From: Minisyncoccota bacterium
Lineage (GTDB): Bacteria; Patescibacteriota; Minisyncoccia; UBA6257; UBA9933
Assembly (NCBI GenBank): GCA_041653755.1
Contig: JBAZEU010000002.1
Span: 16,707-80,706, forward strand
Direction: 5' to 3'
DNA: 64,000 nt
The notes below the pieces were generated by a model that worked only from the letters and a program-made list of their open reading frames with translations, was not told the origin of the DNA and made no database searches. This document shows, in pieces, positions 15,373-31,546 of the stretch (positions within the stretch are counted from its first letter, which is position 1; each line of letters opens with the position of its first letter). The position numbers and the translations under genes are program-made.

Positions 15373-15560
15373 ATCTTTTACATTAATTTGATTACATTAT
15401 CGACCTTTAAATTGTGTTGGTTCCCAGCTGGCGGAACATCGTGAAGGATGTTGGAAAGATACTTCAGCGACAAACCGAGTATATTTACATCCCCAATTTA
15501 AGTCCTCAAATTTAACTTTACTATATCAGATTTTACCCTACCCTGCCACTCACTATTGTT

Positions 15561-16157
15561 TTAAAACGCACTAAATAGCGTTTTTATTCCTAACAAAACT
15601 AAGATAGTGGCCAAAACCTTAAATGTAGTTTCAATAAGGTTTTTTCTTTGTAACAGAGGTCTGAATTGATAAAAAATAAAAGCTAAAGCAAACGTCATTA
15701 TTAGCCAGGCTAATTCAAAAACGGCCAAGAAAATGAATTTTCCGCCAGGAATAGAATTGTTTAATGCTAATGCCTTCGGAACACCAATCGTGATCCAAAA
15801 AATCCAATAGCCGCTATTAAAAGCGGTAAGTAAAATTATTTTGGGAAAGGTTAAAATCTTCTTAGCTTCAGTGTTTATTTCCTTTATTTTCCATACCTGT
15901 GAGCCCAACCAAAACAGAACAAGTGCTCCGCAAACCGAAATAATTTGTATTGCTAATTGATTCAAGCCGATCGCATAAAAAATGAGGAAAACCAGCAAAG
16001 CTCCAATTGTTTCGGCAATTAAAGCGTAGAAGATTACCCGAATTCCTTTTAAGAAACCAAGATTAAGTATCTCTGTAAAAGTTCCAGTCAAAATTGGGCC
16101 TGGGACAGCTCCTCCAACTAATCCCAATAAAAATGCTTCCACGAGTGAAGTGATCAT
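15561..16157 (-). CDS. LysE/RhtB-family translocator-like membrane protein
   Basis: About 6 TM helices; N-terminal GGAVPGPIL motif. Confidence 0.45.
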   Translation of the reverse strand: MITSLVEAFLLGLVGGAVPGPILTGTFTEILNLGFLKGIRVIFYALIAETIGALLVFLIFYAIGLNQLAIQIISVCGALVLFWLGSQVWKIKEINTEAKKILTFPKIILLTAFNSGYWIFWITIGVPKALALNNSIPGGKFIFLAVFELAWLIMTFALAFIFYQFRPLLQRKNLIETTFKVLATILVLLGIKTLFSAF

Positions 16158-16160
16158 AAT

Positions 16161-16487
16161 TTAAAATTCTTCTAATGGATAAATATCAAAAGCCACCTCT
16201 TCGTAAGGATGCACCTTCTTTATTGTCGCAATAACATCTTTTGCAAGGCTGCGTTCACATACAAATTCTATTCGTTCTTCCTGAACCGATTCCAGCTTTC
16301 CAACCTGACCAATAGCTGGATGTGCACCACTTTCAGGTTTGAATCTCCCAATACCCTTAGAGGAAAAGCTACAATAAGTGTAATTTCCGATTTTTCCTGC
16401 GCCAGTCTTACCTATAGCTTCTCTAACTATATCCGTATGAGTTTCGGGAACAAATACAACGATTTTAATGTTTTTTGATTCACTCAT
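16161..16487 (-). CDS. small conserved protein (PII/CutA-like fold, Nif3-insert-domain-related; COG3323-like)
   Basis: 108 aa, [29 protein letters not shown] ... [14 protein letters not shown]. Confidence 0.4.
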   Translation of the reverse strand: [108 protein letters not shown]

Positions 16488-16489
16488 AT

Positions 16490-16852
16490 TTATTCAAATT
16501 CTTCAATGTTTTTTATTGATATAACTACGGCAGCTTTTGGAGTGTAGTTTTTGTTTGTTTCCAAGCCCTTCACATAATCAAAATATTCGCCTGAGGAAAG
16601 ATATTCTGCTTCGCCAGTTATCTTAATTCCGTAGTGATAATCCTCCTCGTAGGCTAACACGAAAACTTTTTTATTGGCCAATATATTCTTCTCAGAGATA
16701 CCCATTTGATTAGAAGTAATGATAAGTTGATCCTTCTCTGCCTTATTAGCCTCGACGATAATAGCGCGAGGCTGGCAATCTTTATCCGTCGTAGCCAAAA
16801 TTACGAGATTTCTTCGACCTAATAGTTCTAATTGTTTTTGATTTAATTCCAT
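16490..16852 (-). CDS. pyridoxamine 5'-phosphate oxidase-like FMN-binding family protein
   Basis: 120 aa split-barrel-like; NLVILATTDKDCQPRAIIV pattern. Confidence 0.45.
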   Translation of the reverse strand: MELNQKQLELLGRRNLVILATTDKDCQPRAIIVEANKAEKDQLIITSNQMGISEKNILANKKVFVLAYEEDYHYGIKITGEAEYLSSGEYFDYVKGLETNKNYTPKAAVVISIKNIEEFE

Positions 16853-16865
16853 ATTATTAAGTTAA

Positions 16866-17834
16866 TTATAATCTTATTTCTTTTTCTAACCAATCTATTT
16901 TCTCATGCCTGCGCCGCCAGAATATGTCCTCCCAGATATAGTGAACTGCCAGCATCGAATAGCGACCATATTGCTTAAGAATATCCTTACGGATTGTGTT
17001 GGTTGAAACGAGTTTTTTATTATAGAAAAGCATTGAATAAATCTTCTGCTGCCAGGGAGCAATATGATCAAAAACATCGTAATGATGCAAGGCCTCAAAA
17101 AGCAATATACGTGAACTTTCAGGGCCGATTCCGTAAAGTTTAATCAGTTCATTTTTGGCATTCTCTTTATCAAGTGTCCGCAGTTGCATCTCATCCACCT
17201 TCTCTGCCGCAAAATCTTCAGAAAGACGTTTAATAAACTTCGCCCGATATCCAATCCTAAGATCGCGCAATTCCTGCTCGGTGACATCGGCCAAATCCTT
17301 GGGTAGCCAGATGGCATAAAAAGTCTTCTTATCAAACTCAACCTTAGTGCCGTATTTACTGAGCAATGCGTCTAACATTTGCTGACTACGTCGTACAGTC
17401 GCATTTTGTAAAACTACTGCGATTATAAGGAGTTCGTAGAGTGTGAACTGGCTCAGATTACGCATACCCATCCATTTCTTAAATATGGGATAGAATCGTT
17501 TATCCTTTTTAGCTAAAGCATTGAATTCTCCAAAATCTCTATCCAGCTCAAATCGCCAACTTATCTCTTTTTTAATAATCTCAAGTTCATCTTTCCCTAT
17601 ATTTCCCTTATAAAAAATTGATACTAAAAGCTCGGGCTTGGTTGCAGTGCCGCCATTTTTAATCTTCAATCCGAATAAATGCTTGCCAATCCGCAATGAT
17701 TGCCAATATACTCCTGGCTCCCAATCTTCCAATTTAAGATTATTAGGAAAATGTGATGGTTTGTGAAAAGTACCATCAAAATTAAATGGTGGCTTGGGAG
17801 AGAGAATAAAGTTTTTTGTAAGATTCAGTTTCAT
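16866..17834 (-). CDS. HhH-GPD superfamily DNA glycosylase (AlkA/Ogg-like)
   Basis: LIKLYGIGPESSRILLFEALHHYDVFDHIAPWQQ resembles the HhH-GPD LPGIG ... PDVFP-D motif; start set at an internal ATG to avoid overlap. Confidence 0.55.
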   Translation of the reverse strand: MKLNLTKNFILSPKPPFNFDGTFHKPSHFPNNLKLEDWEPGVYWQSLRIGKHLFGLKIKNGGTATKPELLVSIFYKGNIGKDELEIIKKEISWRFELDRDFGEFNALAKKDKRFYPIFKKWMGMRNLSQFTLYELLIIAVVLQNATVRRSQQMLDALLSKYGTKVEFDKKTFYAIWLPKDLADVTEQELRDLRIGYRAKFIKRLSEDFAAEKVDEMQLRTLDKENAKNELIKLYGIGPESSRILLFEALHHYDVFDHIAPWQQKIYSMLFYNKKLVSTNTIRKDILKQYGRYSMLAVHYIWEDIFWRRRHEKIDWLEKEIRL

Positions 17835-17836
17835 AC

Positions 17837-18673
17837 CTATTGAATAAACCCGCCATGCACAAAACAACGATAAATTATTTTACCCTTAAGCAAAATCTCC
17901 TCTATACCTGAAAATCTTGATAGGTCGCCGTCTACAGAAAACTTATACTCCCAATCTCCATCAACGAATTCGTTTGGGCCTCTAACGGGAACAGGGCTAT
18001 CATATTCTTGCATCAAGGCTTTTCTAAGAAAATTATAGACTTCTTTTTCTCCAATTTTTTCAGAAAGGATAAAGCCATAATAATTCGCGCCCCATGCTGG
18101 CTTTTCGTCCTGGTAGACAATCTCCTCACCGATAAAGTCTCGGCCACCAAAGTAAGTGTCGTGATAAATTAAGCCATCTTTTTCAAAATGATAATCCTCG
18201 GATTTCGGTCGACTTGATTCAACCTTTGGCGCATTCTTGTTTGCATATGTGCTCTTATTTGCTTCATTAAGAAAATGAGCAAGAACATCTTTCGGCAAGT
18301 CCTGATAATTTGGCAACTGATATTCTGGAATACCCAAAGTCAAACCATACTTTCTAACCTCGTCATATTGGGCTTTGTTATTACGATCGACATGAAAAAC
18401 CTTGTTTCTAAAAATAATGTAATGCTTCTTGTCATTCCTAAAATCTGCATACCAAGAGCTCACATGACTCATATCGATTACTTTGCTCAATTCTTGCGCT
18501 ATATCCTCGGCTTCAGATTCGGGAATCTCGACCCGATGCAAAGTCCATTGCTTTAGCCAGGGAGTTTGATGTTCGTCGATGACAGCCTCAACATTAGTCT
18601 TCAAAATCTTGAGTCGCTTGATGACCTTTGTATTATCCAAACTTTCTTCAATTATTGTGCCTTTGTAATTCAT
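17837..18673 (-). CDS. hypothetical protein
   Basis: 278 aa; 4-nt overlap with the downstream gene. Confidence 0.5.
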   Translation of the reverse strand: MNYKGTIIEESLDNTKVIKRLKILKTNVEAVIDEHQTPWLKQWTLHRVEIPESEAEDIAQELSKVIDMSHVSSWYADFRNDKKHYIIFRNKVFHVDRNNKAQYDEVRKYGLTLGIPEYQLPNYQDLPKDVLAHFLNEANKSTYANKNAPKVESSRPKSEDYHFEKDGLIYHDTYFGGRDFIGEEIVYQDEKPAWGANYYGFILSEKIGEKEVYNFLRKALMQEYDSPVPVRGPNEFVDGDWEYKFSVDGDLSRFSGIEEILLKGKIIYRCFVHGGFIQ

Positions 18674-19413
18674 TTGAAATATATATTTAAAAATTTCCCA
18701 AGCTCTGCGTTTACTTCCTCAATACTATCAGGAGAATAACGATAGTCATGAGTACTATGCAACTCTTTTATAATCTTGGGTTCGGGAGTATCCTCAAATA
18801 ACTTCCTGACGGTTTCGACTGGTGTAAATTCATCCTGATCGCCATAAATCAAAAGCTTCGATTTCTTACAATTTTTCAAGATTTCTCCCGCATTATATTG
18901 CTCGCCATCTTTCCAATAGGCGATCGGCAATTTGAATTCTTTCTGTTCCTTAGTTTCAGAAGTTCCTGGTGGCAAGTCTCTGTATGATAACTTGTAGCCT
19001 TTATTCATGGCTTCTTTGCCTGGCGCTGTGGGTTCTCCAAAGTTCGCCATGATTGGTACAATGCAGACTACGGCCGAATTCTCACTTGCGAATATCGATA
19101 CAGCAGCTCCTCGACTATGACCCAAAAGCAGAGTCGGTTTATTACCAAAATATTCAATCAGTTCGTTGACTGCTTTTATATAATTTGTGGTCGTATATAA
19201 ATCAATAGCCCCTGGACTTTCCCATGTCCCAGGTGGATCAAAGGCCACTGCATAAAAACCTTGCTTTGCGAGATAATCTGCATGGCTTGAAAAACAAGCG
19301 TAATCTTTAGTATCCAAACGGCCAGGCAAAATCAATGCTAATTTTTTAGCATTCTGATCGCCTCGCGTAAGCACCGCTAATTCAAATGATTTTGTTTTGA
19401 TAAGTTTATCCAT
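18670..19413 (-). CDS. alpha/beta-hydrolase fold esterase/lipase family protein
   Basis: GHSRG nucleophile elbow (GxSxG); start at the internal ATG to avoid a 59-nt overlap. Confidence 0.6.
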   Translation of the reverse strand: MDKLIKTKSFELAVLTRGDQNAKKLALILPGRLDTKDYACFSSHADYLAKQGFYAVAFDPPGTWESPGAIDLYTTTNYIKAVNELIEYFGNKPTLLLGHSRGAAVSIFASENSAVVCIVPIMANFGEPTAPGKEAMNKGYKLSYRDLPPGTSETKEQKEFKLPIAYWKDGEQYNAGEILKNCKKSKLLIYGDQDEFTPVETVRKLFEDTPEPKIIKELHSTHDYRYSPDSIEEVNAELGKFLNIYFK

Positions 19414-19417
19414 ATTA

Positions 19418-19864
19418 TTATTGTCCCCAGTCAATAAGTTCTGTAAATCGCAGATAGAATCCAAATGGATCTTCAACTCTGAAATCTCGCCAGAACGTTT
19501 CGCCGTCCTTTTTGCCCGTCACTGGTTGCTTGATGTTATCTTTTATCTTCGGCGCTATCTCATTATAAAAATCATCCACATGAGCGACGGGAATTGTTAA
19601 TTCGGTGGCGTACCCACGTTTTGTGTCTGTAGGAAAGTTCTTAAAATAAGCCTGGTTGTAGACTCTATCGTTACCGCCGTAAAAATTAAGGATCGTGTCA
19701 CCCTCATTATCATGTCGCCTGAGAACAAGATATCCAGGCTCCGTCGCAGTGGCCTTATTCTCCATAATCGGCTCGAAGCCAAGAAGGCCATAAAATTCCT
19801 TGGCAATGTTAAAATCTGGAACGTGTAATTCGATAATCAAATTGTTGCGTATAGGTAATTTCAT
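19418..19864 (-). CDS. VOC/glyoxalase-bleomycin resistance family protein
   Basis: 148 aa with two beta-alpha-beta-beta-beta modules (ELHVPDFNIAKEFY ...). Confidence 0.5.
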   Translation of the reverse strand: MKLPIRNNLIIELHVPDFNIAKEFYGLLGFEPIMENKATATEPGYLVLRRHDNEGDTILNFYGGNDRVYNQAYFKNFPTDTKRGYATELTIPVAHVDDFYNEIAPKIKDNIKQPVTGKKDGETFWRDFRVEDPFGFYLRFTELIDWGQ

Positions 19865-20463
19865 AATTTTTTATCTAATATCAAATATTTTATGAATTCT
19901 TTTCCAAACTCAGTTACTTTCACAAAAGGAGCAGCGATAGGGCCAACTCTGGATGAGTAATCTGACATCAATATTCCAGCAGTGACTAAATCATAAACAA
20001 GTTCATTTTTATTTTTAGTCTGTTCATAAATTTGATGGAAATCAGTCTTAGAAGTATCTACATCTCTCAAGACTACAAAATCATCAGCATTCAGAATACT
20101 TAAGATATGATACATCCTTTCCAACTCAAATCTATTCTGGTTATCAGATTGAGCAAAGCCCAGAAAAATAGCTCGCATCATTTTTCTTTTTTCTTCGTTT
20201 TTTTCACGAATATATCTCTCCAGAGCATACACAAATCCATCTTGAAATTTCGCATCTCTAAGAATGATCTCGGTGAAAGCTGACGGATTATCCTTAACCA
20301 TCTCAACCCATTCAAGCGCTCTCTGCTCACGAAGTTTCAAGCCCGCACCATATAAAGCCTTACTTAGACCCCAGGCTATATTCAGCCCAGGCAACGCCGA
20401 AGCGATTTGATCAGCGATGACTAATGCGGAGTCTTTTATAATTTGTTTATCTTTTTCGTTCAT
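19861..20463 (-). CDS. hypothetical protein, partner of the Mrr-domain fusion protein
   Basis: 200 aa; start overlaps the upstream gene's stop by 4 nt; no recognisable domain. Confidence 0.55.
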   Translation of the reverse strand: MNEKDKQIIKDSALVIADQIASALPGLNIAWGLSKALYGAGLKLREQRALEWVEMVKDNPSAFTEIILRDAKFQDGFVYALERYIREKNEEKRKMMRAIFLGFAQSDNQNRFELERMYHILSILNADDFVVLRDVDTSKTDFHQIYEQTKNKNELVYDLVTAGILMSDYSSRVGPIAAPFVKVTEFGKEFIKYLILDKKL

Positions 20464-21968
20464 GACTTTTTATTTTTAGATTTCTCTCTTTCAATAACAA
20501 AATCGTAGGTTTTCTTAAACTCATAAACATTCAGGGTTGCCTTTTTATCTGCTTCTTGTCCGATCTGCCGTTCTATCATCCATTGTTCTTCAGGATTTTT
20601 CTTAAGATAGTCTCCTAATTTTTCGCTTTCTGCATGTGTAATTTGGAGATAATATTTTGTGCTGCCTTCAGCGTCTTTATTAAGAATTAAGACTACATCT
20701 TTTGGTTTTAAGAAATTATACCGACCATCACATTCATAAAGGGTATTAAATGATTCATTGCCATGTTTAAGCATGTTAAAATCTGGATCATTTAGGGTTA
20801 TTCCTTTTTCTTCATGAATCGTTCCGATGGTGGGACTTGGAAAAGATTCTGTAAATTTTTTTACACGCTTATAGCCATCCAGAGATTGCTGTCTTTTTTT
20901 AACCTCCAAATATTCATAAGTGCCAGCAATTGGGCCAGTCTTAAAATCAAAATCAACAAATATGTGCGGGAAGTTATGCCATCCATCACCCTTATCGTCT
21001 ATAACCAGCATCTCATCATATCGAATTAACCCGTTACTAAAAAATGTTGCCTGGTGGCGATGGGGCAAATGTTCCCAAAAATCTTCAACCTTATCACGGA
21101 TTTCCTGTTGTTTAGTTCTTTCTTCATGGGAGTCACTATCTCGAAAAACAAGATCGGCGACTCCCGTAAAATCAAACTCTTTCTTTTCTATATCGATATA
21201 AGCAAAATGCTTACGTAAATTTACTATGATTCCAAGAGGATGATATTGAATAAACCTGTATTCGCGCCATCGGGGATGTTCGCCAAAATCTTTATACCCA
21301 TTCTTGTAAGGATATTTCGAATCCTTTGAATCTCGAAGCAAAATTGATTTATAAAAGTCGTTACCCTCGCCGAATGTTCTGTATAACTTATTTTTGCATG
21401 CTACAACCTGCCTTATTTCCGTGGCCCGTGACCGTCTTTTACTAACTAACGAAATTCCAAAAAAGGTAAAAAGAATGCGATCATTTTTTGGGAGATAGAG
21501 CATATCCTCAAGCTCCGCCTTTCCCCAAAGATAAAATTCCATTACGCCTTTGTTCCGCAGCTCTTCTCGAAACGCATCATAAGAATCTTTGGAAAAATTT
21601 GAAGAAGCGGCCAGAATGTATCCGTATGGAGGATTTTTAGAATCAACATCAGAAAGAATTTCTTTTACTCGTTTCGGGCCTATTTCTTTCTCTCTTTTTC
21701 CTTGAATCATCCAAAGATTACCTTCCATAGGGTGTTTTTCTTCTGCCTCGTCACTTACCTCATCGTTTTCAGGCTGGGAATTTTTATAAACTTTTTCATG
21801 GGCGCGGATGTCAAAACCTTCGTCATTTCCGCTCCTGCCAGTTGCTTCGATAGTTTGCCAATCTTTGTAGTCGTAAATAAGCTCTCGAATTAAATCTTCG
21901 AATCGATGAGGGTCTAAATCTTCAAAATGTATTGGCCCGTATGTTCTTGTGACTCTTGATTTCGCCAT
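20460..21968 (-). CDS. Mrr-type restriction-endonuclease (PD-(D/E)xK) N-terminal domain fused to a large unknown C-terminal domain
   Basis: FEDLIRELIY ... TGRSGNDEGFDIRA ... LWMIQGKRE ... GYILAASSNFS matches the Mrr_cat core (D ... QxK); roughly 330 aa C-terminal region unrecognised; start at internal ATG MAKSRV. Confidence 0.65.
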   Translation of the reverse strand: MAKSRVTRTYGPIHFEDLDPHRFEDLIRELIYDYKDWQTIEATGRSGNDEGFDIRAHEKVYKNSQPENDEVSDEAEEKHPMEGNLWMIQGKREKEIGPKRVKEILSDVDSKNPPYGYILAASSNFSKDSYDAFREELRNKGVMEFYLWGKAELEDMLYLPKNDRILFTFFGISLVSKRRSRATEIRQVVACKNKLYRTFGEGNDFYKSILLRDSKDSKYPYKNGYKDFGEHPRWREYRFIQYHPLGIIVNLRKHFAYIDIEKKEFDFTGVADLVFRDSDSHEERTKQQEIRDKVEDFWEHLPHRHQATFFSNGLIRYDEMLVIDDKGDGWHNFPHIFVDFDFKTGPIAGTYEYLEVKKRQQSLDGYKRVKKFTESFPSPTIGTIHEEKGITLNDPDFNMLKHGNESFNTLYECDGRYNFLKPKDVVLILNKDAEGSTKYYLQITHAESEKLGDYLKKNPEEQWMIERQIGQEADKKATLNVYEFKKTYDFVIEREKSKNKKS

Positions 21969-21978
21969 ATTAAACTTG

Positions 21979-22167
21979 CTATTTGTTTTTCTTATTACTT
22001 GTCTTCTCCAAAAAAGCGTGCAAATCTGATTCCTTGATTCTCCAAACCCCAATCTTAGATGCCTTTAACTTTCCAGATTCAATATACCGAGTTACCGATC
22101 GACCACTGACTCTCAGGATTTTTGCTACTTCGGGAATCGTGAGAAGTTTTTCCATTTTGGAATTCAT
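21979..22167 (-). CDS. excisionase/AlpA-type helix-turn-helix DNA-binding protein
   Basis: 62 aa; LLTIPEVAKILRVSGRSVTRYIESGKL ... IGVWRIKESDL is a classic Xis-family HTH. Confidence 0.7.
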   Translation of the reverse strand: MNSKMEKLLTIPEVAKILRVSGRSVTRYIESGKLKASKIGVWRIKESDLHAFLEKTSNKKNK

Positions 22168-22199: not shown

Positions 22200-22258
22200 G
22201 CTCTACAAATCTTTGTTGTCAAAGTTGGCATTTTTTGTCATAATGGAAATAAATTACA
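22200..22258 (+). promoter_or_regulatory. divergent promoter region (TTGTCA, 17 nt, CATAAT for the plus gene; TTGACT on the facing strand)
   Basis: Hexamers seen in the 97-nt divergent intergenic region. Confidence 0.35.
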
Positions 22259-22264
22259 ATTACT

Positions 22265-22897
22265 ATGAGCCTACCAAAAACAATTTCAGATATCATCAGG
22301 GCTATCCACGCCAAATTAGAGATTGCTCCAGAAAAAGATAGAATTATCGCTATTTCTCTGTGGGATTTCCAAGACCAAAGCGGAGACACCATACCCAAGG
22401 GTGACATGAAAAGTGGACTAAAAAAATTAGCAGAAGATGAAAAACTCTTTCAATTAAAAGACATCCGATGCCTTGATAAATTGGGAAGATTTTCTGGCGA
22501 AGAAATAAAGATCGAAATAGATCGTGAGCGATTTGTAAAATTCTACAAAAAACACCTCCAAGAACAAAAAGCTCCGATCGGTAATATTGAATTCTTAGAC
22601 GATGAGGCATTGTTAAAACTGGGGGATAAAAAATGTCCCTTACCGCCATATAAAAACGAGCACTTTTTCTGCCAAGCCGCTTTCGAGCATCCAATCAATG
22701 AGCCGATTGACTGGTCGATTATTTACGAAAAAATGACGGGCTATTATGAGAAACACTTTGGCAAAACAAAGGATACGAGAGAAAACTGGCATCAGGTATA
22801 CGACACGATGGAAGCAATCAATAAACGAGCGGAAGAATTATTGAATATAGAAAAGTTATTTGTTTGGCGGGAAAAATCGATAAAAAGAACCCGATAA
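22265..22897 (+). CDS. hypothetical protein
   Basis: 210 aa ORF; 9-bp inverted-repeat hairpin and a terminator downstream. Confidence 0.5.
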   Translation: MSLPKTISDIIRAIHAKLEIAPEKDRIIAISLWDFQDQSGDTIPKGDMKSGLKKLAEDEKLFQLKDIRCLDKLGRFSGEEIKIEIDRERFVKFYKKHLQEQKAPIGNIEFLDDEALLKLGDKKCPLPPYKNEHFFCQAAFEHPINEPIDWSIIYEKMTGYYEKHFGKTKDTRENWHQVYDTMEAINKRAEELLNIEKLFVWREKSIKRTR

Positions 22898-22956
22898 GCC
22901 AACAAAATCAATTGAGTCAACAAATTCTCAGTTGACTCACCCAGTGATTTTATAAA

Positions 22957-22989
22957 GTCAAAGCAGGATACGCTTTGGCTTTTTTAATT
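22957..22989 (+). terminator. rho-independent terminator
   Basis: caaagc/gctttg stem followed by gctttttt. Confidence 0.45.
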
Positions 22990-23011
22990 CGCCAGAGCTC
23001 CCACAAATTAT

Positions 23012-23296
23012 ATGTCCAAAAAATTATCCAAAAATGGGGAGCAAGAATACACGCCCGAAGACTACACAAAATATTTATCCACGTTTGATCTGGGAGCAGC
23101 CGCCTCACTGGTGTCGGCTGGTTTTGAGCTTGTCTCGCTGGATAAAACCAACCCCAGAAAAGTGCAGTTCATCTTTCGCCGAGTCATCGGCATTGAAAAG
23201 GTCGTTGATGATTACTGGTCAGATAAGCTCGAAGTTAAGGCACGATCATTCTTTGACAATGTGAAGATGCTAAAAAACCGAATCTATTCGGAATAG
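23012..23296 (+). CDS. DUF5659-like small protein (common in phage/plasmid/CPR mobile-element contexts)
   Basis: 94 aa; DLGAAASLVSAGFELVSL ... KVQFIF resembles the DUF5659 pattern. Confidence 0.45.
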   Translation: MSKKLSKNGEQEYTPEDYTKYLSTFDLGAAASLVSAGFELVSLDKTNPRKVQFIFRRVIGIEKVVDDYWSDKLEVKARSFFDNVKMLKNRIYSE

Positions 23297-23300
23297 GCCT

Positions 23301-23498
23301 ATGCTGTCGGACGAGCAAATTAAAAAATACCAGATGCTTCATAAGAATCGCTATGGCACAGAGATCAGCAGAGAAGAAGCATACACGAGAGGCGCACAGC
23401 TCCTCCGACTCATTGAACTTATTTACAAACCGATGACCGAAGAAGAATTCCAAAAACTTCAGGAGCGACGCAAGGAAACTGGCGACCTAAAAACCTAA
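23301..23498 (+). CDS. hypothetical small protein
   Basis: 65 aa, charged, helical. Confidence 0.4.
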   Translation: MLSDEQIKKYQMLHKNRYGTEISREEAYTRGAQLLRLIELIYKPMTEEEFQKLQERRKETGDLKT

Positions 23499-23509
23499 GT
23501 AAAAACATT

Positions 23510-25687
23510 ATGCAAGAATTACAAACAATTACCATTAAAGAATATTTATCCCGCAAAGGCGTTGCTTTTCGGGAGAGTGGCAATGAGCTCGTCGTTAAGT
23601 GCCTTTTTAATAACTGCGATAAAGATAGCCAATCAAACGAAGCTCACCTGTATTTTGATATTGCCACTGGCCAATACGAATGCAAGAAATGCGGCGAGAA
23701 AGGTAACCTCATAACGCTCGCAAAATATCTGGGGGATGATATAAGCGAGATCGCAATAAATCAGCGAGATTCAGCGATTAAGCCACGTCTCGCAAAATTT
23801 GGAGCTGTGTCGGCAGATGCCTGCCACTTGGCACTTACTCCCGATATCAGAAAGTATTTGAACGCCAGGGGCATTTCTGACCCCGTTGTGGACGCTTTCA
23901 AACTGGGCTGGGGAAAGTTCTACGGAAAATACTGGATTACCATACCCATAAAGAACATCTATGGGTCTTTTCAGTTTTTGAAATTACGCCAAGACCCGAA
24001 CGCTGGGAACGACAAAATGACTTATCCAAAAGGAATCGAGGCTCAGATTTACGGCTGGGAGATGCTGACGGAAAATCATGATCGGATAATAATCTGCGAA
24101 GGCGAGCTGGACAGGCTGGCTTTGCTCTCAAAAAATATTCCTGCCGTCACCTCAACGCATGGCGCACTGACCTTCAAAAAAGAATGGATAGAGAAAATCG
24201 GAAAAGGCAAAAAAATTTATATCTGCTACGACAACGACGAGGCTGGCAGAAAAGGATCGGAGCGGGTGGCAAAGTTGCTGGAAAATTCTGGCAATGAAAT
24301 CTTTATCGTTACGCTTCCAAACGAAGTCGGCGAAGGCGGAGACATTACTGACTACCTGGTAAAACTCAACGGCGATCCCGAAGATTTATTCAACAGATAC
24401 GCCAAACCCTATCCAGAGAAAATCGATGCCTCACAATTCAAACCATTAACCGCAAAAGAAATCGTTGAAACACTGGGATTGACTATAAAAAAAGATGAGG
24501 AAAATAAGCTGATAACATTTCTATGCGAGCTCTCGGCCTACACAGAAAACTCCCAGCTCAACATTTCTTTTAACGCCCCGTCATCAACAGGCAAGTCATA
24601 CATCCCAACTGAGATTGCCAGACTCTTTCCAGAAGACGATGTTATTGAAGTCGGTTACTGCAGCCCCACAGCATTTTTTCATGACGTGGGAGAATATGAC
24701 AAAGAAAGAAATGGCTACTTGGTAGACTTGAGTCGCAGGATTTTAATCTTTTTGGATCAGCCACACACCCTACTCCTTCAACACTTGAGGCCGCTACTTT
24801 CTCACGATAAAAAAGAAATTAGATTAAAAATCACTGATAAGTCTCAAAGAGCAGGCCTGAAAACCAAAAACATATTTCTCAGAGGATTCCCTGCGGTGAT
24901 TTTCTGCACGGCAGGACTGACGGCCGATGAACAGGAAGCAACTCGATTTATGCTCCTCTCTCCAGAAACCAATCAGGAAAAAATCAGGCAGGCAATCTAC
25001 GAAAAAATAAAGAAAGAAACCGATAGTCAGAAATACGAAAACCTACTGGAAGGGAACAAAGAAAGAAAATCCCTTAAAGAAAGAATACGAGCCATCAAAC
25101 TGGAAAACGTCAAGGGAATAAAAATAGGTTCACCAGAAGAATTAGAGAAGACGTTTTTCAGACAGAATAAAATGCTTAAACCAAGACACCAGCGAGACAT
25201 CGGCCGCATCATTTCTCTTGTCAAAGCATTTGCGCTATTGAATTTATGGTTTAGGGAAAGAGACGGGTCAATCATTGTTGCGAACGAAGATGATATCAAA
25301 GAAGCGTTCAACGTCTGGGATACGATTTCCGAGAGCCAAGAGCTCAATCTTCCGCCATATGTTTACAAGCTTTTTCAGGAAATAATAATCCCAGCATGGA
25401 ATGAAAAAAATCAAAGCCGAGACGAGTTTGAAAAAATCACGGGCCAGCTGGGATTAACCAGGCGAGAGATTCAGCGAAAACATGTTCAGGTTTATGGGAG
25501 AACGCTGGCCGACTGGTTTCTGCGCCAGCAAATTATTCCATTGCTTGAAAGCGCAGGATTGATCTGCCAAGAACCTGATCCGAATGATAAACGGAAAATG
25601 TTAATTTACCCCACCGCTCCACTCGGTAATTCAATAAGCCAAAACAATAGTGAGCCCAATGGTGGGGTAGAAAAATTAAGCCTATGA
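23510..25687 (+). CDS. primase-helicase: CHC2 zinc finger + DnaG-type TOPRIM + P-loop NTPase
   Basis: C-x5-C ... H ... C-x2-C zinc finger (KCLFNNCDKD ... HLYFD ... ECKKCGEKG); TOPRIM IIICEGELD and YICYDNDEAGRKG; Walker A FNAPSSTGKS and Walker B-like ILIFLDQPH. Confidence 0.8.
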   Translation: MQELQTITIKEYLSRKGVAFRESGNELVVKCLFNNCDKDSQSNEAHLYFDIATGQYECKKCGEKGNLITLAKYLGDDISEIAINQRDSAIKPRLAKFGAVSADACHLALTPDIRKYLNARGISDPVVDAFKLGWGKFYGKYWITIPIKNIYGSFQFLKLRQDPNAGNDKMTYPKGIEAQIYGWEMLTENHDRIIICEGELDRLALLSKNIPAVTSTHGALTFKKEWIEKIGKGKKIYICYDNDEAGRKGSERVAKLLENSGNEIFIVTLPNEVGEGGDITDYLVKLNGDPEDLFNRYAKPYPEKIDASQFKPLTAKEIVETLGLTIKKDEENKLITFLCELSAYTENSQLNISFNAPSSTGKSYIPTEIARLFPEDDVIEVGYCSPTAFFHDVGEYDKERNGYLVDLSRRILIFLDQPHTLLLQHLRPLLSHDKKEIRLKITDKSQRAGLKTKNIFLRGFPAVIFCTAGLTADEQEATRFMLLSPETNQEKIRQAIYEKIKKETDSQKYENLLEGNKERKSLKERIRAIKLENVKGIKIGSPEELEKTFFRQNKMLKPRHQRDIGRIISLVKAFALLNLWFRERDGSIIVANEDDIKEAFNVWDTISESQELNLPPYVYKLFQEIIIPAWNEKNQSRDEFEKITGQLGLTRREIQRKHVQVYGRTLADWFLRQQIIPLLESAGLICQEPDPNDKRKMLIYPTAPLGNSISQNNSEPNGGVEKLSL

Positions 25688-26376
25688 CGAGAGAAATAAT
25701 ACCAATTAAAAATAATAGCTTGAACCTCGACAACCCAGAGGATAGATTAATTTTTTACAAAGAAACCCTAAGCAAGATTACGAGCGTATTTTTTGACCCG
25801 CAAAAAATGGACGAAATCTATAAAGGGTTTGAAGAAATAGCAGAGCTTAGACGCAAGGCAAAAACAGAAAAAGAAGAAAAAGCACTAAACCAGAGATCGC
25901 TTAAACTAAGCCAGCAGGCCGCTCACATAAAATTGTATCCCTGGGAGAACCTGCTCCCGCTTGCCCTTAGCGGCAAAGAAGATATAACACCCGTCTCAGA
26001 AATGCGCAGCTCGCTCATTGACGAATACTGCCCGAAGACTCCAACCGAATTGGCCTTGATAGAAACCATCGCCATTGCCCATTATAACTTCATAAGAAAT
26101 ACGGGGGTTTTGAATACGCACCTGATGACCAAAGACGAAACTTCGAGAACGCTCCATTTTGACTCACTACAGATGAAAGCAGCAAAAGAAGCTGCAAAAG
26201 CCGTTGATCTTGCTTACAGGCAATTCACCAATTCAATTATGCTCCTGAAAGAACTGAGACAACCGAAATTAAATATCCATGTCAAAACCGAGAACGCTTA
26301 TCTTGCCAAAAATCAGCAGGTAATCAATGTCAAAAAATCAAACAGAAAAAAGGAGAAAATCATTAATGCCAAATGA
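25684..26376 (+). CDS. hypothetical protein
   Basis: 230 aa ORF translationally coupled to the primase. Confidence 0.5.
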   Translation: MTREIIPIKNNSLNLDNPEDRLIFYKETLSKITSVFFDPQKMDEIYKGFEEIAELRRKAKTEKEEKALNQRSLKLSQQAAHIKLYPWENLLPLALSGKEDITPVSEMRSSLIDEYCPKTPTELALIETIAIAHYNFIRNTGVLNTHLMTKDETSRTLHFDSLQMKAAKEAAKAVDLAYRQFTNSIMLLKELRQPKLNIHVKTENAYLAKNQQVINVKKSNRKKEKIINAK

Positions 26377-26707
26377 TTTCGGAAAAAAATATATGAGAAC
26401 CCTCATCGAACAATGCCAAAAAATCAATATCGACAGCCTGCTAAAAGACATAAAGGCCGAGATCAAGGAGTTGCGCCTGAAGATAAAGCTGAAGGAATTC
26501 GGACAGAAGATTGAAATAACTTCAACGCCTTGCTACTTCGGCGAAGAAAGATATTGGTTTATCTGCCCGAAATGCAGGAAACGAGCAGGAACTCTGTATA
26601 AGCCACCGACTCAAGACATCTTCCTTTGCCGAAAATGCCACGACTTAAAATACATGAGTTCCAGTCATCATCGAATGTTCGAAGAAAAATTAACCAAAGG
26701 CTTATAG
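26366..26707 (+). CDS. zinc-ribbon protein (C-x2-C ... C-x2-C)
   Basis: ATG after AAAAGGAG; CPKCRKR ... CRKCHD. Confidence 0.5.
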   Translation: MPNDFGKKYMRTLIEQCQKINIDSLLKDIKAEIKELRLKIKLKEFGQKIEITSTPCYFGEERYWFICPKCRKRAGTLYKPPTQDIFLCRKCHDLKYMSSSHHRMFEEKLTKGL

Positions 26708-26712
26708 CACAT

Positions 26713-26741
26713 TGAGAAATCAGACAAAATGAGGTAAAATA
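26713..26741 (+). promoter_or_regulatory. sigma70-type promoter
   Basis: TTGAGA, 17-nt spacer, TAAAAT. Confidence 0.5.
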
Positions 26742-26747
26742 TAATTG

Positions 26748-26896
26748 CGTCCTACAAGTTTGAATATCTGCACAGGGTGATTGCTTCTTTTGAAGCCCAA
26801 TTGCGGGCTGAAAGGGGCGACTATCCTCCACAATTGGTTGCCTTGTGCAATTCAATCTTGTGGGACGCAGGCTCTGGTCGTCCCTTTTTGTTTTAT
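26748..26896 (+). ncRNA. candidate small RNA or cis-regulatory leader (about 145 nt) with its own promoter and intrinsic terminator
   Basis: Promoter at 26713-26741; internal hairpins such as gcccaattgcgggc; terminator gggacg ... cgtccc plus tttttgttttattt at 26862-26896; no plausible ORF. Confidence 0.4.
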
Positions 26897-26961
26897 TTGA
26901 CTTCCTTAAACCTTTGGCCCATGTATGTGTGTAGAGCAATACAATTAAAAGTTTACATAAT

Positions 26962-27996
26962 ATGACAAGACCATTAAACACAAAAATATTAATATTAAGC
27001 ATTAGCGGAATAGTCCTGCTGACTTTGACGGCAATCGGGCTATTCGCATACTTCTCACTCTTTGGCGCACCGCAAACAAAAGCTGAGCCAGAAAGATTCA
27101 TCGTCTCAATGAATCAATCAAAACAAGACCTAATCGCAAAACTCCACGAGCAAGGATTTATCAAAAGCGAGTGGGGTTTTAATTATGCGCTTGAAGGAAA
27201 CGACATCCAGCCAGGCGGATACAAAATCTCAAAAAGCATGACGGCCTGGGAGATGGCGAAAGCACTTAAAGAACCTTACATGAAATGGGTCGTAATTCCC
27301 GAAGGATTAAGAAAAGAACAGATCGGAGAACTTATCGGTGATGCGCTTAGTTGGAACGAACAGCAAAAGAAAGACTGGGCCGTGAAGTATACAGCAATGG
27401 CTTACGACCAGCTGGAAGGCATTTACTTTCCTGACACATATCTCCTTCCGAAGGACGAAACAGTGCTCCAGATTTCTGATCGGCTGAGAGCTAAATTCAA
27501 TGAAAAATTTAAGCCTTATGCCAACAAATTTGTGACAGCTAATATCCAATGGACAACGGCATTAAAGCTTGCCTCAATCGTCCAAAGAGAAGCAGCTGGC
27601 AAGAGCGATATGCCACTCGTGGCAGGAATTCTCTGGAACAGATTATTAAAAGGAATGAAGCTCGAAGCTGACGACACAATCCAATACATCCGAGACGACG
27701 TGATCCATTACGGCGAAGCCAGATTTGATGCACAGCCAAAAAATTATACCAGCAAGGGAGATTGGTGGAAGCCAATAAAATTGGCCGATAAACAGATCGA
27801 GTCGCCTTATAACACATACAGAAATAAAGGACTTCCACCTCATCCAATCTGCAACCCAGGCCTGGATGCAATCGATGCGGTGTTAAACTCGGCCGACACT
27901 GAATGTCTTTATTATCTGCACGATTCAAGTGGACAAATTCACTGCGCCAAAACCTACGAGGAACACAAGGCCAACATTGAAAAATATTTGAAATAA
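26962..27996 (+). CDS. mltG: MltG/YceG-family endolytic transglycosylase (island copy)
   Basis: N-terminal TM, YceG-like domain; C-terminal YNTYRNKGLPPHPICNPG shared with the paralog at 40100. Confidence 0.75.
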   Translation: MTRPLNTKILILSISGIVLLTLTAIGLFAYFSLFGAPQTKAEPERFIVSMNQSKQDLIAKLHEQGFIKSEWGFNYALEGNDIQPGGYKISKSMTAWEMAKALKEPYMKWVVIPEGLRKEQIGELIGDALSWNEQQKKDWAVKYTAMAYDQLEGIYFPDTYLLPKDETVLQISDRLRAKFNEKFKPYANKFVTANIQWTTALKLASIVQREAAGKSDMPLVAGILWNRLLKGMKLEADDTIQYIRDDVIHYGEARFDAQPKNYTSKGDWWKPIKLADKQIESPYNTYRNKGLPPHPICNPGLDAIDAVLNSADTECLYYLHDSSGQIHCAKTYEEHKANIEKYLK

Positions 27997-27998
27997 CT

Positions 27999-29723
27999 AT
28001 GGAAAAGCCAGCTCAAAAAATTAAATACTTCCTCTACGCAAGAAAATCATCGGAGAGCGAGGATCGGCAGGTTCAATCCATTGATGACCAGATCGACCGC
28101 CTAAAAGAACTTGCCAGAGATTTGAGCTTGGATATCAAGAAAATATATAAGGAGTCGAAATCAGCAAAAAAGCCAGACAACAGGCCATTGTTTGACGAAA
28201 TGATTCAACGTATTGAAGAAGGTGAGGCTGACGGCATTTTATGCTGGCAAATTAATCGACTCTCAAGAAATCCTATTGATAGCGGAAAGCTAAGCTGGCT
28301 TTTGCAGCAGGGCACGCTTAAATCAATTCAGACCATAGATCGGCAATATCTTCCAGACGATAACGTTATTCTCTTCAGCGTTGAAAGCGGAACGGCCAAT
28401 CAATATATTCTTGATTTAAGAAAGAATGTAAAACGAGGCCAGGCATCAAAACTGGCCAGAGGTTGGATGCCCGCATGCGCTCCCCAGGGTTACTTAAACA
28501 GCAAGACAAAGGAAAAGGGAGATAACGATATTTTTAAAGACCCAGAACGCTTTCCGATGATACGGAGAATGTGGGATTTAATGCTGACAGGAAATTACAC
28601 ACCCCCTCAAATCGCAAAGATCGCGAACGAGCAATGGGGCTACACAACCAGAAAGACGAAACGATCTGGCGGTAATCCTCTATCAAAAAGTGGAATTTAC
28701 AGAATTCTCACAAACATTTTCTATACAGGAATTATTGATTACGGCGGCCAACAATACGAAGGCAAGCATGAACCGATAATCACACTTGAAGAATACGATC
28801 ACGTGCAGAAGCTTCTTGGGAGAAAAGGCAGACCCAGGGCAAAGAGTCATACCTTCGCCTTTACTGGCTCATTCCGCTGTGCTGAATGCGGTTGCCTTTA
28901 TACAGCCGAAGAAAAACAAAAGCTCATCAAGAAAACTGGCAAAATAAAGGAATACACCTATTATCACTGCACCCGACGCAGAGAAGATTATGATTGTTCG
29001 CAAAAGAAAAGCATCACGCTTGATGATTTGGAATTGAAGATTGAAAAAGAAATCGAGAAATACACGATTCTGCCAGAGTTTCTGCAGTGGGCACTGGAAG
29101 GCTTAAGCAAAAAGAACGACACAGAGATCGAGGACAGAACAAAGATTTACGAAATGCAACACAAAACACTCGTCCAAACTCAGAAAGAACTGGACGAGCT
29201 GACTAAAATGAGGTACCGCCAGCTCATTGATGACGAAACATTTGTCAAAGACAAAAACGAACTATCAACCAAAATCGCCCAATTGAAAAATAAGCTCAGG
29301 GAAACTGAGGCCAGGGCTGAACGCTGGCTTGAATTAACCGAAAATACTTTCAGCTTCGCTACTTACGCACGATCAGCATTTATTAAGGCCAGTGAAATAG
29401 GCAAGGCAGGGTTAGAACTGAAGAAAGAAATACTTCTGGCATTGGGCCAAAGCCCTAAAATTAAAGACGGAGAGCTCGTGATCGAGCCCAATGAATGGTT
29501 TGTGCCAATACAAAAAGGCTATCCTGCACTTGAAAAGAAATACTTAGCGTTAGAACCGACGAAATTGCCACTAAATAAAGCAAAAACAGAGGCTTTGGCC
29601 TCTGTTCGTGCACACTGGCGGAGAGGGAGGGATTCGAACCCTCGGGGCCCTTTCGAACCCAACATCTTAGCAGGATGCTGCTTTAAGCCACTCAGCCACC
29701 TCTCCTTGTTATATCTCGGTTAG
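27999..29723 (+). CDS. large serine recombinase (resolvase N-domain + recombinase domain + zinc ribbon); ORF reads into the tRNA-Ser 3' end
   Basis: YARKSSESEDRQVQSIDDQ with catalytic Ser; CWQINRLSRN (DRLSR-type); zinc ribbon CAECG ... HCTRRREDYDC; the last ~35 codons overlap the tRNA at 29616-29705. Confidence 0.8.
   Translation: MEKPAQKIKYFLYARKSSESEDRQVQSIDDQIDRLKELARDLSLDIKKIYKESKSAKKPDNRPLFDEMIQRIEEGEADGILCWQINRLSRNPIDSGKLSWLLQQGTLKSIQTIDRQYLPDDNVILFSVESGTANQYILDLRKNVKRGQASKLARGWMPACAPQGYLNSKTKEKGDNDIFKDPERFPMIRRMWDLMLTGNYTPPQIAKIANEQWGYTTRKTKRSGGNPLSKSGIYRILTNIFYTGIIDYGGQQYEGKHEPIITLEEYDHVQKLLGRKGRPRAKSHTFAFTGSFRCAECGCLYTAEEKQKLIKKTGKIKEYTYYHCTRRREDYDCSQKKSITLDDLELKIEKEIEKYTILPEFLQWALEGLSKKNDTEIEDRTKIYEMQHKTLVQTQKELDELTKMRYRQLIDDETFVKDKNELSTKIAQLKNKLRETEARAERWLELTENTFSFATYARSAFIKASEIGKAGLELKKEILLALGQSPKIKDGELVIEPNEWFVPIQKGYPALEKKYLALEPTKLPLNKAKTEALASVRAHWRRGRDSNPRGPFEPNILAGCCFKPLSHLSLLYLG
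29616..29705 (-). tRNA. tRNA-Ser (anticodon GCT), type II, CCA encoded
   Basis: Reverse complement GGAGAGGTGGCTGAGTGG ...; anticodon stem CATC/GATG with loop CTGCTAA; long variable arm; GGTTCGAATCC; ends CCA. Confidence 0.8.
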
Positions 29724-29954
29724 TAGATATTTGATTCTTTCTTTGCCCTTGCCAGATTTTAAAAACAATTCTTCGCGTCTGGCATCTTTTTTAGAAAGAA
29801 ACGCTTCATAGTAAATCAATTTCCATGGCCCATTATTTTTTGTGTAAACTGATTTACCTGTATTATGTTCGATCATTCTTCTTTTTAAATCGTTCGTAAG
29901 GCCTTTATATAGTTTATCATTCTTACAGCTTTTCAAAAGATATACATAATACAT
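29709..29954 (-). CDS. GIY-YIG nuclease-domain small protein
   Basis: YYVYLLKS ... LYKGLTNDLKRRMIEHN is the GIY-YIG signature. Confidence 0.7.
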   Translation of the reverse strand: MYYVYLLKSCKNDKLYKGLTNDLKRRMIEHNTGKSVYTKNNGPWKLIYYEAFLSKKDARREELFLKSGKGKERIKYLLTEI

Positions 29955-30082: not shown

Positions 30083-31546
30083 ATGAAGAAAAAACAAGCT
30101 GAAAAATTATCGCCTCGACCGCCGATTGTAGTCATCTTGGGACATGTTGATCACGGTAAAACCACTCTTTTGGACTATATCCGAAAAACCAACGTTGCTG
30201 CCAAAGAAGCGGGCGGTATCACTCAATCAATCGGTGCTTACGAAATAGAACATACTGGCAAAAAAATAACTTTTGTTGATACGCCTGGTCATGAGGCCTT
30301 TAATAAAATGAGAGAACGCGGCGCTAATGTTGCTGACCTAGCTATTTTAGTGGTAGCGGCCGAAGAAGGGTTGAAACCTCAAACCAAAGAATCAATAGAT
30401 ATTTTAAACAAAACTAAAACGCCTTTTGTTGTCGCGATAAATAAAATTGATAAGCCAGCCGCTAATATCGATAAGGTTATTAATGATTTATTAGAGGCGG
30501 GTGTTTTATTAGAAAAATATGGCGGTCATATTCCGTGGCAAGGGATTTCCGCTAAGACCGGTGAAGGCGTGAACGAACTTTTAGATCTTATTCTTCTGGT
30601 TGGTGAAATGGAAAGTTTGACATATTCTTTCGATGTTCAAGCTAAAGGAATAATCATTGAATCAAAACTTGACCCGAAAAGGGGAGCTACAGCGGCTATT
30701 GTTTTGAAGGATGGAACTTTGAAAATCGGTGATCAAATCGCCACACAAACAGCTTTTGGCAAAATAAAAACATTGGAGAACTTTTTAGGAAAAAGAGTAG
30801 ATGAAATTTTGCCTTCAAGTCCGGTTTTAATCTTGGGTTTTGAAACAATGCCGCAGATTGGCGAAGAGTTCTGGGCCGGCGGAATAAACATCGTTGAGAT
30901 TAAAACGCCGCCCCTCGAGGCGCCGCCCGAAAGAATAGCGGTTCAAGAAGAAGGGCTAAAAGAAAATTATATCAATCTGATTATAAAAGCGGATAGTGCC
31001 GGATCATTAGAAGCCTTGAGAAGCATAATTGAGGCGATTCCGTTGAAAGACCAAAAAATGAAATTTTTGGAAGCGTCAGTCGGAGATATAACCGATGGCG
31101 ATATCGGCTTGGCTCAAGCCAGCAAAGCGGTAATTATTGGTTTCAAGGTGAAAGTTCAGAAAGCCGCTCAAGAGTTTGCTAGGATCCACAACGTAAAAAT
31201 CGTTACGTCAGACATCATCTATGAGATTGTTAAAATTTTGGAAGAGGGCTCGATCGCTAAAATGCCTCCGACTATATTAGGCGAATTGGAAGTTTTGGCT
31301 GTTTTTAACCAAAAAACAAAAAAACAAATTATTGGCGGGAAAGTAATTTCTGGCGTCATCAAGGCCAATAGTCGGCTCAAGGTAAAAAGAGGCGATGGAG
31401 ATCTCGGTACCGGGAAAATTTTAAATCTTCAACAACAAAAACAGGATGCCAAAGAAATTAAAGCTGACAATGAATGTGGTATGCTTTTTGAATCAGACAC
31501 GAAGATTAATGTTGGCGACCACTTAGTCCATGAATCACAGAATTGA
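30083..31546 (+). CDS. infB: translation initiation factor IF-2 (short form)
   Basis: G-domain VVILGHVDHGKTTLLD, DTPGHEAF, NKID; domain order as in the C-terminal two-thirds of IF-2. Confidence 0.85.
   Translation: MKKKQAEKLSPRPPIVVILGHVDHGKTTLLDYIRKTNVAAKEAGGITQSIGAYEIEHTGKKITFVDTPGHEAFNKMRERGANVADLAILVVAAEEGLKPQTKESIDILNKTKTPFVVAINKIDKPAANIDKVINDLLEAGVLLEKYGGHIPWQGISAKTGEGVNELLDLILLVGEMESLTYSFDVQAKGIIIESKLDPKRGATAAIVLKDGTLKIGDQIATQTAFGKIKTLENFLGKRVDEILPSSPVLILGFETMPQIGEEFWAGGINIVEIKTPPLEAPPERIAVQEEGLKENYINLIIKADSAGSLEALRSIIEAIPLKDQKMKFLEASVGDITDGDIGLAQASKAVIIGFKVKVQKAAQEFARIHNVKIVTSDIIYEIVKILEEGSIAKMPPTILGELEVLAVFNQKTKKQIIGGKVISGVIKANSRLKVKRGDGDLGTGKILNLQQQKQDAKEIKADNECGMLFESDTKINVGDHLVHESQN

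Follow-up and report, generated by a model that had tools for sequence, protein, structure and literature searches.

An integrative element of 14.2 kb appears to occupy the 3′ end of a tRNA-Ser(GCT) gene in a Minisyncoccota bacterium, and it was very probably inserted there by its own large serine recombinase (LSR), whose open reading frame (ORF) would hold the attachment site, attP. We place the probability of this reading at roughly 0.88. The window analyzed here is a stretch of 64,000 nucleotides, positions 16,707 to 80,706 of contig JBAZEU010000002.1 (assembly GCA_041653755.1), and coordinates are window positions unless a related locus (L001 and so on) is named. The case is built from the two junctions of the element and their shared core, recurrence of the arrangement across a family of recombinases, a free circular form of a relative, covariation in a terminator encoded antisense to the recombinase gene, and a displaced C-terminal tail that seems to be maintained at the level of protein. 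The recombinase and the tRNA gene that it overlaps are the following:

27999..29723, plus strand: LSR in its integrated form, 574 amino acids from an ATG start; residues 1-540 are encoded by the element and residues 541-574 are tRNA-antisense read-through
29616..29705, minus strand: tRNA-Ser(GCT), the integration target, intact, with a perfect acceptor stem and an encoded CCA (ARAGORN; Rfam RF00005, 57.7 bits)

The sequence-only reading of this DNA had described an LSR frame of 574 residues running into a complete tRNA-Ser(GCT), and ORF analysis, Pfam, ARAGORN, and Rfam all bear this description out. The frame crosses the 3′ half of the tRNA gene on the opposite strand, and the Trp codon TGG at LSR residue 540 (29616-29618) is the antisense of the encoded CCA. 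Pfam assigns the protein a Resolvase domain (PF00239, 2.2e-18, residues 11-155), a Recombinase domain (PF07508, 3.9e-12), and a Zn_ribbon_recom domain (PF13408, 5.1e-09), and the Ser nucleophile motif YARKSSESEDRQ of the catalytic domain is invariant in 36 homologues. Alignment to SprA and A118 Int extends over residues 13-450 (E ~1e-7 against solved LSRs), and the ~90-residue region that follows (450-540) has no counterpart in the solved structures. The last ~35 residues had been attributed to the tRNA. Their origin stands, as homologue tails vary with the identity of the abutting tRNA, and their exact number is 34. Homologues do have a conserved C-terminus, and it is a different sequence from the read-through, so the objection that the read-through is itself the genuine end of the protein fails.

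A crossover at TGG would leave the tail of the un-integrated recombinase at the far end of the element, and the window was therefore searched by tblastn with the tails of un-integrated homologues. One strong match was returned, from the tail of homologue P0099 to 15429-15509 on the plus strand (70% identity over 27 amino acids, E=1.7e-9). After the core at 15428 come 27 codons whose translation matches the tail conserved at the C-terminus of un-integrated homologues, and the 8 bp CTGGCGGA form an exact direct repeat at 15428-15435 and 29615-29622. The DNA reads ...cccagCTGGCGGAacatcgtg... at the left junction and ...cacacCTGGCGGAgaggga... at the LSR end. The features of the two junctions are listed below:

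15428..15435, no strand: attL core CTGGCGGA, repeat of 29615-29622, with the predicted crossover GG at 15433-15434
15429..15515, plus strand: displaced 3′ end of the LSR gene, comprising the P′ arm and the native tail (Trp, then RNIVKDVGKILQRQTEYIYIPNLSPQI, then stop), in a frame open to the stop at 15513-15515
29615..29622, no strand: attR core CTGGCGGA, with the predicted crossover GG at 29620-29621, which are tRNA positions 72-71

Because the exact 8-bp core and the displaced tail mark the far junction, the element is taken to span window positions 15,428-29,622, or 14.2 kb. Both junctions and a contained integrase gene are present, which is the definition of an integrative genetic element (attL, attR, and a contained int; PMC7192596). 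The proposal of an integration junction at tRNA-Ser is thereby supported by a second junction, a core, and a displaced native tail, and the accompanying remark that the left boundary could not be identified by eye is superseded by the peptide-level search that found it. Left ends suggested earlier at 14.4 and 22.2 kb were rejected; neither has the core or a tail-coding segment. The suggestion that the island extends leftward across the mltG paralogue, the small RNA, the primase module, and possibly the Mrr-fusion operon was upheld for all four, and the closest relative, L001, shares all of these except the Mrr cassette at 80-84% nucleotide identity. A repeat search for a duplicated tRNA fragment in the window found nothing because the core is just 8 bp long.

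Joining the two halves would place attP inside the recombinase's own ORF. The predicted excision product is an LSR of 567 amino acids ending ...SVRAHW-RNIVKDVGKILQRQTEYIYIPNLSPQI, the predicted attP junction reads ...GTTCGTGCACACTGGCGGAACATCGTGAAGGATG..., and the predicted empty attB reads ...GTTGGTTCCCAGCTGGCGGAGAGGGAGGGATTCG.... Displaced tail fragments from seven loci keep the distal motif (E/G)YIYIPDL despite many synonymous third-position changes (TAT/TAC, ATT/ATC/ATA, CCN, GAT/GAC, TTA/CTA/TTG). This motif lies outside the 25-bp half-site, and in every fragment the frame stays open until a stop codon at about the same position. The native 27-residue tail thus appears to be under selection as protein rather than as DNA. 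A second tail class, ..FRTFDW.., is found in other subfamilies.

The position of the crossover was approached through symmetry and through the shared cores. Dyad symmetry summed over 11 attP sites (six intact and five reconstructed) gives a single sharp peak, with a sum of 88 versus ~30-60 elsewhere, centered on the dinucleotide at +4/+5 from the T of TGG, in agreement with the minimal cores. Those cores measure 4-8 bp in five attL/attR pairs. In addition to the window, the two-junction layout is present at L005 (tRNA-Gln), L013 (His), L018 (Gln), and L061 (Asp), where a same-strand tail segment lies 10-11 kb upstream and the shared in-frame cores are GCTG, GATGGGGT, TGGCTG, and GCGC, respectively. 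All five cores include the second and third bases of the codon after Trp, and identity stops exactly there in four of them. A displaced tail segment is also carried by L043. From these patterns we infer a crossover at tRNA positions 71-72, which would put N73 and CCA of the integrated tRNA gene on the element side. In L005 and L061, attL has TTG where attR has TGG; CCA was therefore missing from these target tRNA genes before integration and comes from the element. Of the window's 16 tRNA genes, just four have CCA in their DNA: Ser-GCT, Ser-TGA, Ile, and an odd call as Gly(ACC). The tRNA-Ser(TGA) gene (61822-61911, plus strand) ends ...TCCGCCAg, with the same 8-bp core and the T-loop at equal spacing, and is a candidate for a second attB that stands vacant; among relatives, Ser(TGA), Ser(CGA), and Ser(GGA) do serve as targets.

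The same arrangement recurs throughout the family. A protein search with the LSR gave more than 4,600 matches at E≤1e-10, and C-termini were compared in the best 120, which are 69-86% identical and come mostly from metagenome-assembled genomes (MAGs) of Patescibacteria. All 120 reach ...TEALASVRA[RH]W and then diverge. The tRNA-junction state is seen in 106 of them, 79 with a ..(D/E)SN.. tail (GAT TCG AAC, the T-loop in antisense) and 27 that stop within four codons, and another 11 have non-tRNA tails, most of them native-type. Read-through tails in relatives run from 2 to ~60 amino acids. When 66 genomic loci were compared, with tRNA genes called by ARAGORN, 31 had an opposite-strand tRNA abutting the invariant TGG. 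These tRNAs are Ser (GCT, GGA, TGA, CGA), Asn, Gln (CTG, TTG), His, Trp, Asp, and Ala, and the base after TGG is the complement of the tRNA discriminator (C for G73 tRNAs, G for His, T for Ala). Recurrence of one in-frame arrangement in 106 of 120 homologues and at 31 loci indicates that the overlap is not chance. At L007, the target is a tRNA-Asn gene interrupted by a group I intron (Rfam, 97.5 bits; 11654-11895, minus strand), which explains why ARAGORN missed it and why homologue tails read ...PIGYTYPLIS, and this intron is consistent with the tRNA introns reported in Patescibacteria (PMC13011429). The LSR of L001 is 88% identical to that of the window; the two loci share the element and not the flanks, and their similarity ends 25 nucleotides into the tRNA. 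The element, not the locus, is therefore the conserved unit. One Berkelbacteria MAG (JBAXAF01) has two family recombinases on separate contigs (L049 and L062), so that a single genome can hold multiple elements. A scan of viral contigs with single-sequence peptide patterns found no relatives.

Evidence for a free form came from metagenome contigs, which were searched with a degenerate pattern that only an intact attP matches. Six contigs contain an intact attP, and all are 2.9-10.6 kb long. One of these, L072, has an 88-nucleotide terminal direct repeat and closes to a circle of 10,383 bp, in which a complete 563-residue LSR with a native tail spans the closure and the two halves are joined as predicted. 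Contig L071, from a different sample, reads through the closure point at 99.9% identity. The core genes of the circle are those of the window element: HTH_17, a large ORF, DUF5659, an ORF of ~65 amino acids, a replication protein, and the LSR. Terminal overlap is absent from L067 and L068, and L072 alone is demonstrably circular.

A further function seems to be folded into the last LSR codons, on the strand of the tRNA:

29574..29607, minus strand: intrinsic-terminator-like hairpin and T-tract for the tRNA, antisense within the LSR codons ...NKAKTEALASV

A terminator scan called 29607-29584, which starts 9 nucleotides past CCA and has a 10-bp stem, a 4-nucleotide loop, and a T-rich tail. Across 42 loci, 85% of stem cells are paired, compared with 31-54% when partners are slid, and double-sided stem changes number 47, against 12.3±3.3 in shuffles (0/500), with compensatory changes at seven of the ten stem pairs. 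G·U pairs are far more frequent when the hairpin is read on the tRNA strand (67) than on the sense strand (11), and a T-run follows the stem on the tRNA strand only (5.1 of 8 bases versus 1.6). The structure would therefore act as RNA on the tRNA strand. It appears that amino acids of the LSR change so as to preserve the stem, and the covariation supports the view that the element supplies the tRNA with a putative intrinsic terminator.

The half-sites themselves offer a clue as to how so many tRNA genes could be used. In 13 of 15 P′ arms the motif TT.GAA starts at +22, and 23 of 36 tRNA B′ arms have it at +17, which is the T-loop; counted from the crossover, it ends at half-site positions 24 (P′) and 19 (B′). 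In the LI integrase, the motif of the zinc-ribbon domain (ZD) occupies these same positions, 24 in attP and 19 in attB, a shift of 5 bp (PMC3783163). This correspondence hints that the LSR family recognizes the universal T-loop as one of its motifs, and such recognition would explain the spread of the family over many tRNAs.

Taken together, these observations lead to a mechanism in which the LSR would catalyze both directions of the exchange. The P arm would be the last ~25 nucleotides of the conserved coding sequence, ending in Trp TGG; the 2-bp crossover would be the second and third bases of the following codon; and the P′ arm with ~20 further codons would encode the conserved 27-residue tail. 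Integration would move the last 27 LSR codons 14 kb away to attL and fuse the LSR to 34 residues of tRNA-antisense junk in place of the native tail, and the tRNA gene would receive an element-derived N73 and CCA followed by the antisense-encoded intrinsic terminator. Excision would rebuild the 567-residue enzyme. The T-loop (TTCGAAC in antisense) would be the ZD motif of B′, with TTAGAAC 5 bp further out in P′, and its recognition would account for movement of the family among at least seven tRNA isotypes. Our best guess is that the tail acts only when the element is excised, for integration or the control of integration, and that the tail-less integrated LSR excises together with the small HTH_17 protein described below.

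What the exchange of tails might do can be read in two ways. One, which we hold tentatively, is that it forms a built-in state switch. The tail would be needed for integration, define an integration-only enzyme, or act as a stability tag, and its loss would give a form that is competent for excision or differently regulated. Such a switch refines the integration model and does not compete with it. Selection on the tail as protein beyond the 25-bp half-site fits this idea, as do integrated-state tails that are unconstrained and simply follow the tRNA sequence, elements that still move (protein identities of 70-86% spread over many tRNAs and hosts, and a free circle), the absence of counterparts in solved LSRs for the native tail as well as residues 450-540, and the precedent of an attP within an ORF that alters a C-terminus (PMC3694055). 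Less easily accommodated are the two or more unrelated tail classes and the conserved excisionase-like HTH_17 gene, which could by itself give conventional control of directionality. Structure prediction is uninformative here. In the AlphaFold model of the native-tail homologue P0094, long helices (354-401, 407-462) are predicted at moderate confidence by the predicted local distance difference test (pLDDT), and the tail scores 39-54.

The other reading, also to be regarded as doubtful, gives the overlap no regulatory meaning: it would serve compaction and the placement of CCA and terminator, and the tail would be a tolerated appendix kept by overlapping DNA signals such as the P′ arm or a cargo promoter. 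The first ~8 tail codons do overlap the P′ arm with its conserved TTAGAAC, the codons of the P arm are visibly shaped by the terminator hairpin, and tail classes differ among subfamilies. This explanation does not cover (E/G)YIYIPDL, which is kept beyond the half-site through synonymous third-position changes and so points to constraint on the protein. Were the switch to hold together with T-loop recognition, the element would belong to an undescribed lineage of large serine integrases in which the attachment site sits in the enzyme's own last codons and toggles its tail, a Trp codon doubles as CCA, and retargeting occurs among the tRNA genes of Patescibacteria; this wider picture is possible and is offered with corresponding caution.

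Several observations weigh against the integration model or parts of it. Exact matches of host flank proteins yielded no empty attB for the window host, and contigs from three samples were all integrated; one exact-match contig ends inside the core, which is suggestive and proves nothing. Evidence of mobility comes instead from the family member that closes to a free circle, L072. At three further loci, L017, L019, and L020, an intact attP and a native tail are embedded in contigs of 594, 64, and 636 kb and no tRNA gene is closer than 10 kb; because of them the native-tail form cannot always be a free circle. Many defence and methylase genes flank the elements at these loci, where the LSR ends at ~11.6 kb, and the elements may be nested in other mobile ones; the primase of L017 is fragmented. 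The LSR of L001 abuts merely a tRNA-like fragment of ~25 nucleotides (acceptor strand and T-arm; 11600-11680), and Rfam found neither a tRNA nor an intron downstream of it. The locus also has an intact tRNA-Ser(GCT), 8 kb from the fragment and on the opposite strand (19688-19774), and the fragment could be a pseudo-attB or the product of a rearrangement. About a third of native-type tails belong to the ..FRTFDW.. class, so there is no universal tail motif. The AlphaFold model of P0094 (mean pLDDT 63) is too poor to show tail contacts. Finally, the P and B arms have no TTAGAAC/ZD motif, and the ZD argument is drawn from P′ and B′ alone.

It is very improbable that the LSR is a resident host recombinase overlapping a convergent tRNA, with the 15.4-kb segment a remnant of an old, decayed recombinase copy: the missing empty site and a GC content that is host-like at 15-22 kb and raised only at 23-30 kb would fit, but the two-junction layout recurs at four more loci with different tRNAs, L001 has the same element between different flanks, the L072 circle joins the halves as predicted, the metagenome contigs with intact attP are all element-sized, and a second copy was rejected as the source because similarity at 15429 starts right at the core and nothing upstream of it resembles a recombinase.

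The remaining contents of the element are in keeping with a small replicating unit with exchangeable cargo:

15561..22052, minus strand: cargo block, with LysE-like, P-II-like (weak), PNPOx-like, HhH-GPD-like, DUF5680, and alpha/beta hydrolase genes, unknowns of 148 and 200 amino acids, and an Mrr_cat fusion of 530 amino acids (Pfam)
21979..22167, minus strand: small DNA-binding protein of the HTH_17 excisionase family (Pfam HTH_17, 1.8e-16; PHROG excisionase families, 1.4e-11)
22265..26707, plus strand: core and replication module, with a 210-amino-acid ORF, DUF5659 (23012-23296), a 65-amino-acid ORF, a Toprim primase-helicase (23510-25687), a 230-amino-acid ORF, and a 126-amino-acid Zn-ribbon ORF
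26746..26870, plus strand: candidate structured non-coding RNA, a long hairpin between the 126-amino-acid ORF and YceG (minimum free energy -77.7 kcal/mol, z=-5.4)
26962..27996, plus strand: YceG/MltG paralogue directly upstream of the LSR (Pfam YceG, 8.8e-69)

The HTH_17 gene has the same position in L067, L068, and L071/L072, and its product is a candidate recombination directionality factor or regulator. The Toprim protein matches PHROG DNA primase/primase-helicase families at 2.5e-28, and the gene order of the core module is also found in L067, L068, and L074. Cargo at 16681-19874 is 80% identical to L001 at the nucleotide level. The Mrr_cat fusion and the 200-amino-acid ORF form a cassette (19861-22052, minus strand) that is missing from the otherwise collinear L001 element. 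In other family members the equivalent slot holds MmeI-like restriction-modification or SLFN/AlbA genes and looks like a variable defence slot; PADLOC recognized no known defence system in the Mrr-like protein and neighboring cargo. The candidate non-coding RNA is 97% identical in L001 and 88% in L002 (flanking genes ~83%), with promoter-like sequence upstream and a T-tract downstream, and it matches no Rfam family. A related element, L012, contains a LOOT RNA (RF03000, 83.8 bits; 4542-4662, minus strand), an orphan small-RNA motif, which hints that this motif travels on such elements; the window element has no LOOT match. The YceG/MltG paralogue is 88% identical in amino acid sequence to its counterpart at the same position in L001, and a weaker host copy lies at ~40.6-41.0 kb. 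Neither Pfam, applied to all element ORFs, nor PHROGs, applied to ten of them (with only primase- and excisionase-type matches), detected capsid, tail, terminase, or lysis genes, and Pfam found no relaxase, coupling protein, or type IV secretion system domains in the ORFs between 15.4 and 29.7 kb. Just outside the element, a host GIY-YIG gene (29709-29954, minus strand) overlaps the LSR read-through by 15 nucleotides, and the neighboring IF-2 (30083-31546, plus strand) has just 487 amino acids, typical of reduced genomes.

Serine integrases are the main tools for insertion of large DNA, and the family described here appears to target the most conserved 25 bp of tRNA genes. Nature would already have retargeted it across at least seven isotypes, with changes confined to the discriminator and first acceptor bases of attP, which makes the family a potential source of enzymes with landing pads present in every genome. 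The C-terminus of the LSR would report whether the element is free or integrated, and if it also controls direction or stability, then this would be a new and very compact form of directionality regulation. A single stretch of 40 nucleotides would serve as protein codons, recombination half-site, tRNA CCA end, and antisense terminator. Little is known of the mobilome of Patescibacteria, and to it these elements add a defined and abundant mobile-element class, one that moves defence genes, DNA-repair genes, and the cell-wall gene mltG.

How these elements relate to known systems depends on the feature compared. Serine integrases have been stated as not known for tRNA targets (PMC7192596). A literature search found no tRNA-targeting LSR family and no attP inside an LSR ORF, though subscription journals were mostly outside its coverage and the absence is not proof. 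The window LSR resembles A118/LI Int (PDB 4kis), SPbeta SprA/YokA (9dxh), Bxb1, and phiC31 in its Resolvase, Recombinase, and Zn-ribbon domains and long coiled-coil helices. Its att sites are short and imperfectly symmetric about a 2-bp center, as are those of other LSRs of phages and integrative and conjugative elements, and a 5-bp outward shift of the distal motif in attP relative to attB may be a further parallel, seen here in P′ against B′ and not in the P and B arms (PMC3783163). It departs from those enzymes in that its family's attB sites are tRNA 3′ ends of several isotypes, its family's C-terminus differs between free and integrated states with attP inside the ORF, and it has an extra C-terminal region of ~90 residues. 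The filamentous Ralstonia phages phiRSM1 and phiRSM3 likewise have a serine recombinase at a tRNA-Ser 3′ end with the tRNA in reverse orientation, and their core TGGCGGAGAGGGT is nearly that of the window, TGGCGGAGAGGGA, at the same tRNA-Ser end (PMC3816273). However, the phiRSM enzyme is a small resolvase-like serine recombinase that lacks the Recombinase and Zn-ribbon domains, its element is an inovirus, the identity core is 13 nucleotides versus 4-8 bp here, and attP is intergenic (ORF14/ORF15). Integration-dependent immunity in the mycobacteriophages BPs and Brujita shares with our model an attP within coding sequence and C-termini that differ between viral and integrated forms, but there it is the repressor gene that is split, by a tyrosine recombinase, and the tail removed is a proteolysis tag with a demonstrated role (Broussard and Hatfull; PMC3694055), whereas here the recombinase gene itself is split.

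Unlike tyrosine-integrase islands, the window element restores no long tRNA segment, only N73, CCA, and a terminator. Integrases of SSV1-type archaeal viruses likewise carry attP within their own gene, and their ORF is divided when the element inserts at a tRNA gene. Those enzymes are tyrosine recombinases and the split falls in the gene body and inactivates them, unlike the exchange of a short C-terminal tail here. In overall design the closest parallel is with the tycheposons of Prochlorococcus, described as small integrative tRNA-gene elements with a site-specific integrase, a primase/helicase module, variable cargo, and no capsid or conjugation genes (10.1101/2020.12.28.424599). By the same account, 27 of 937 tycheposons use an LSR and the recombinase is overwhelmingly of the tyrosine type; their hosts belong to another phylum, and the text consulted mentions no attP inside the recombinase ORF. 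What the window element shares with tycheposons is a likeness of organization, as it combines an LSR next to its tRNA target with a Toprim primase-helicase and cargo genes.

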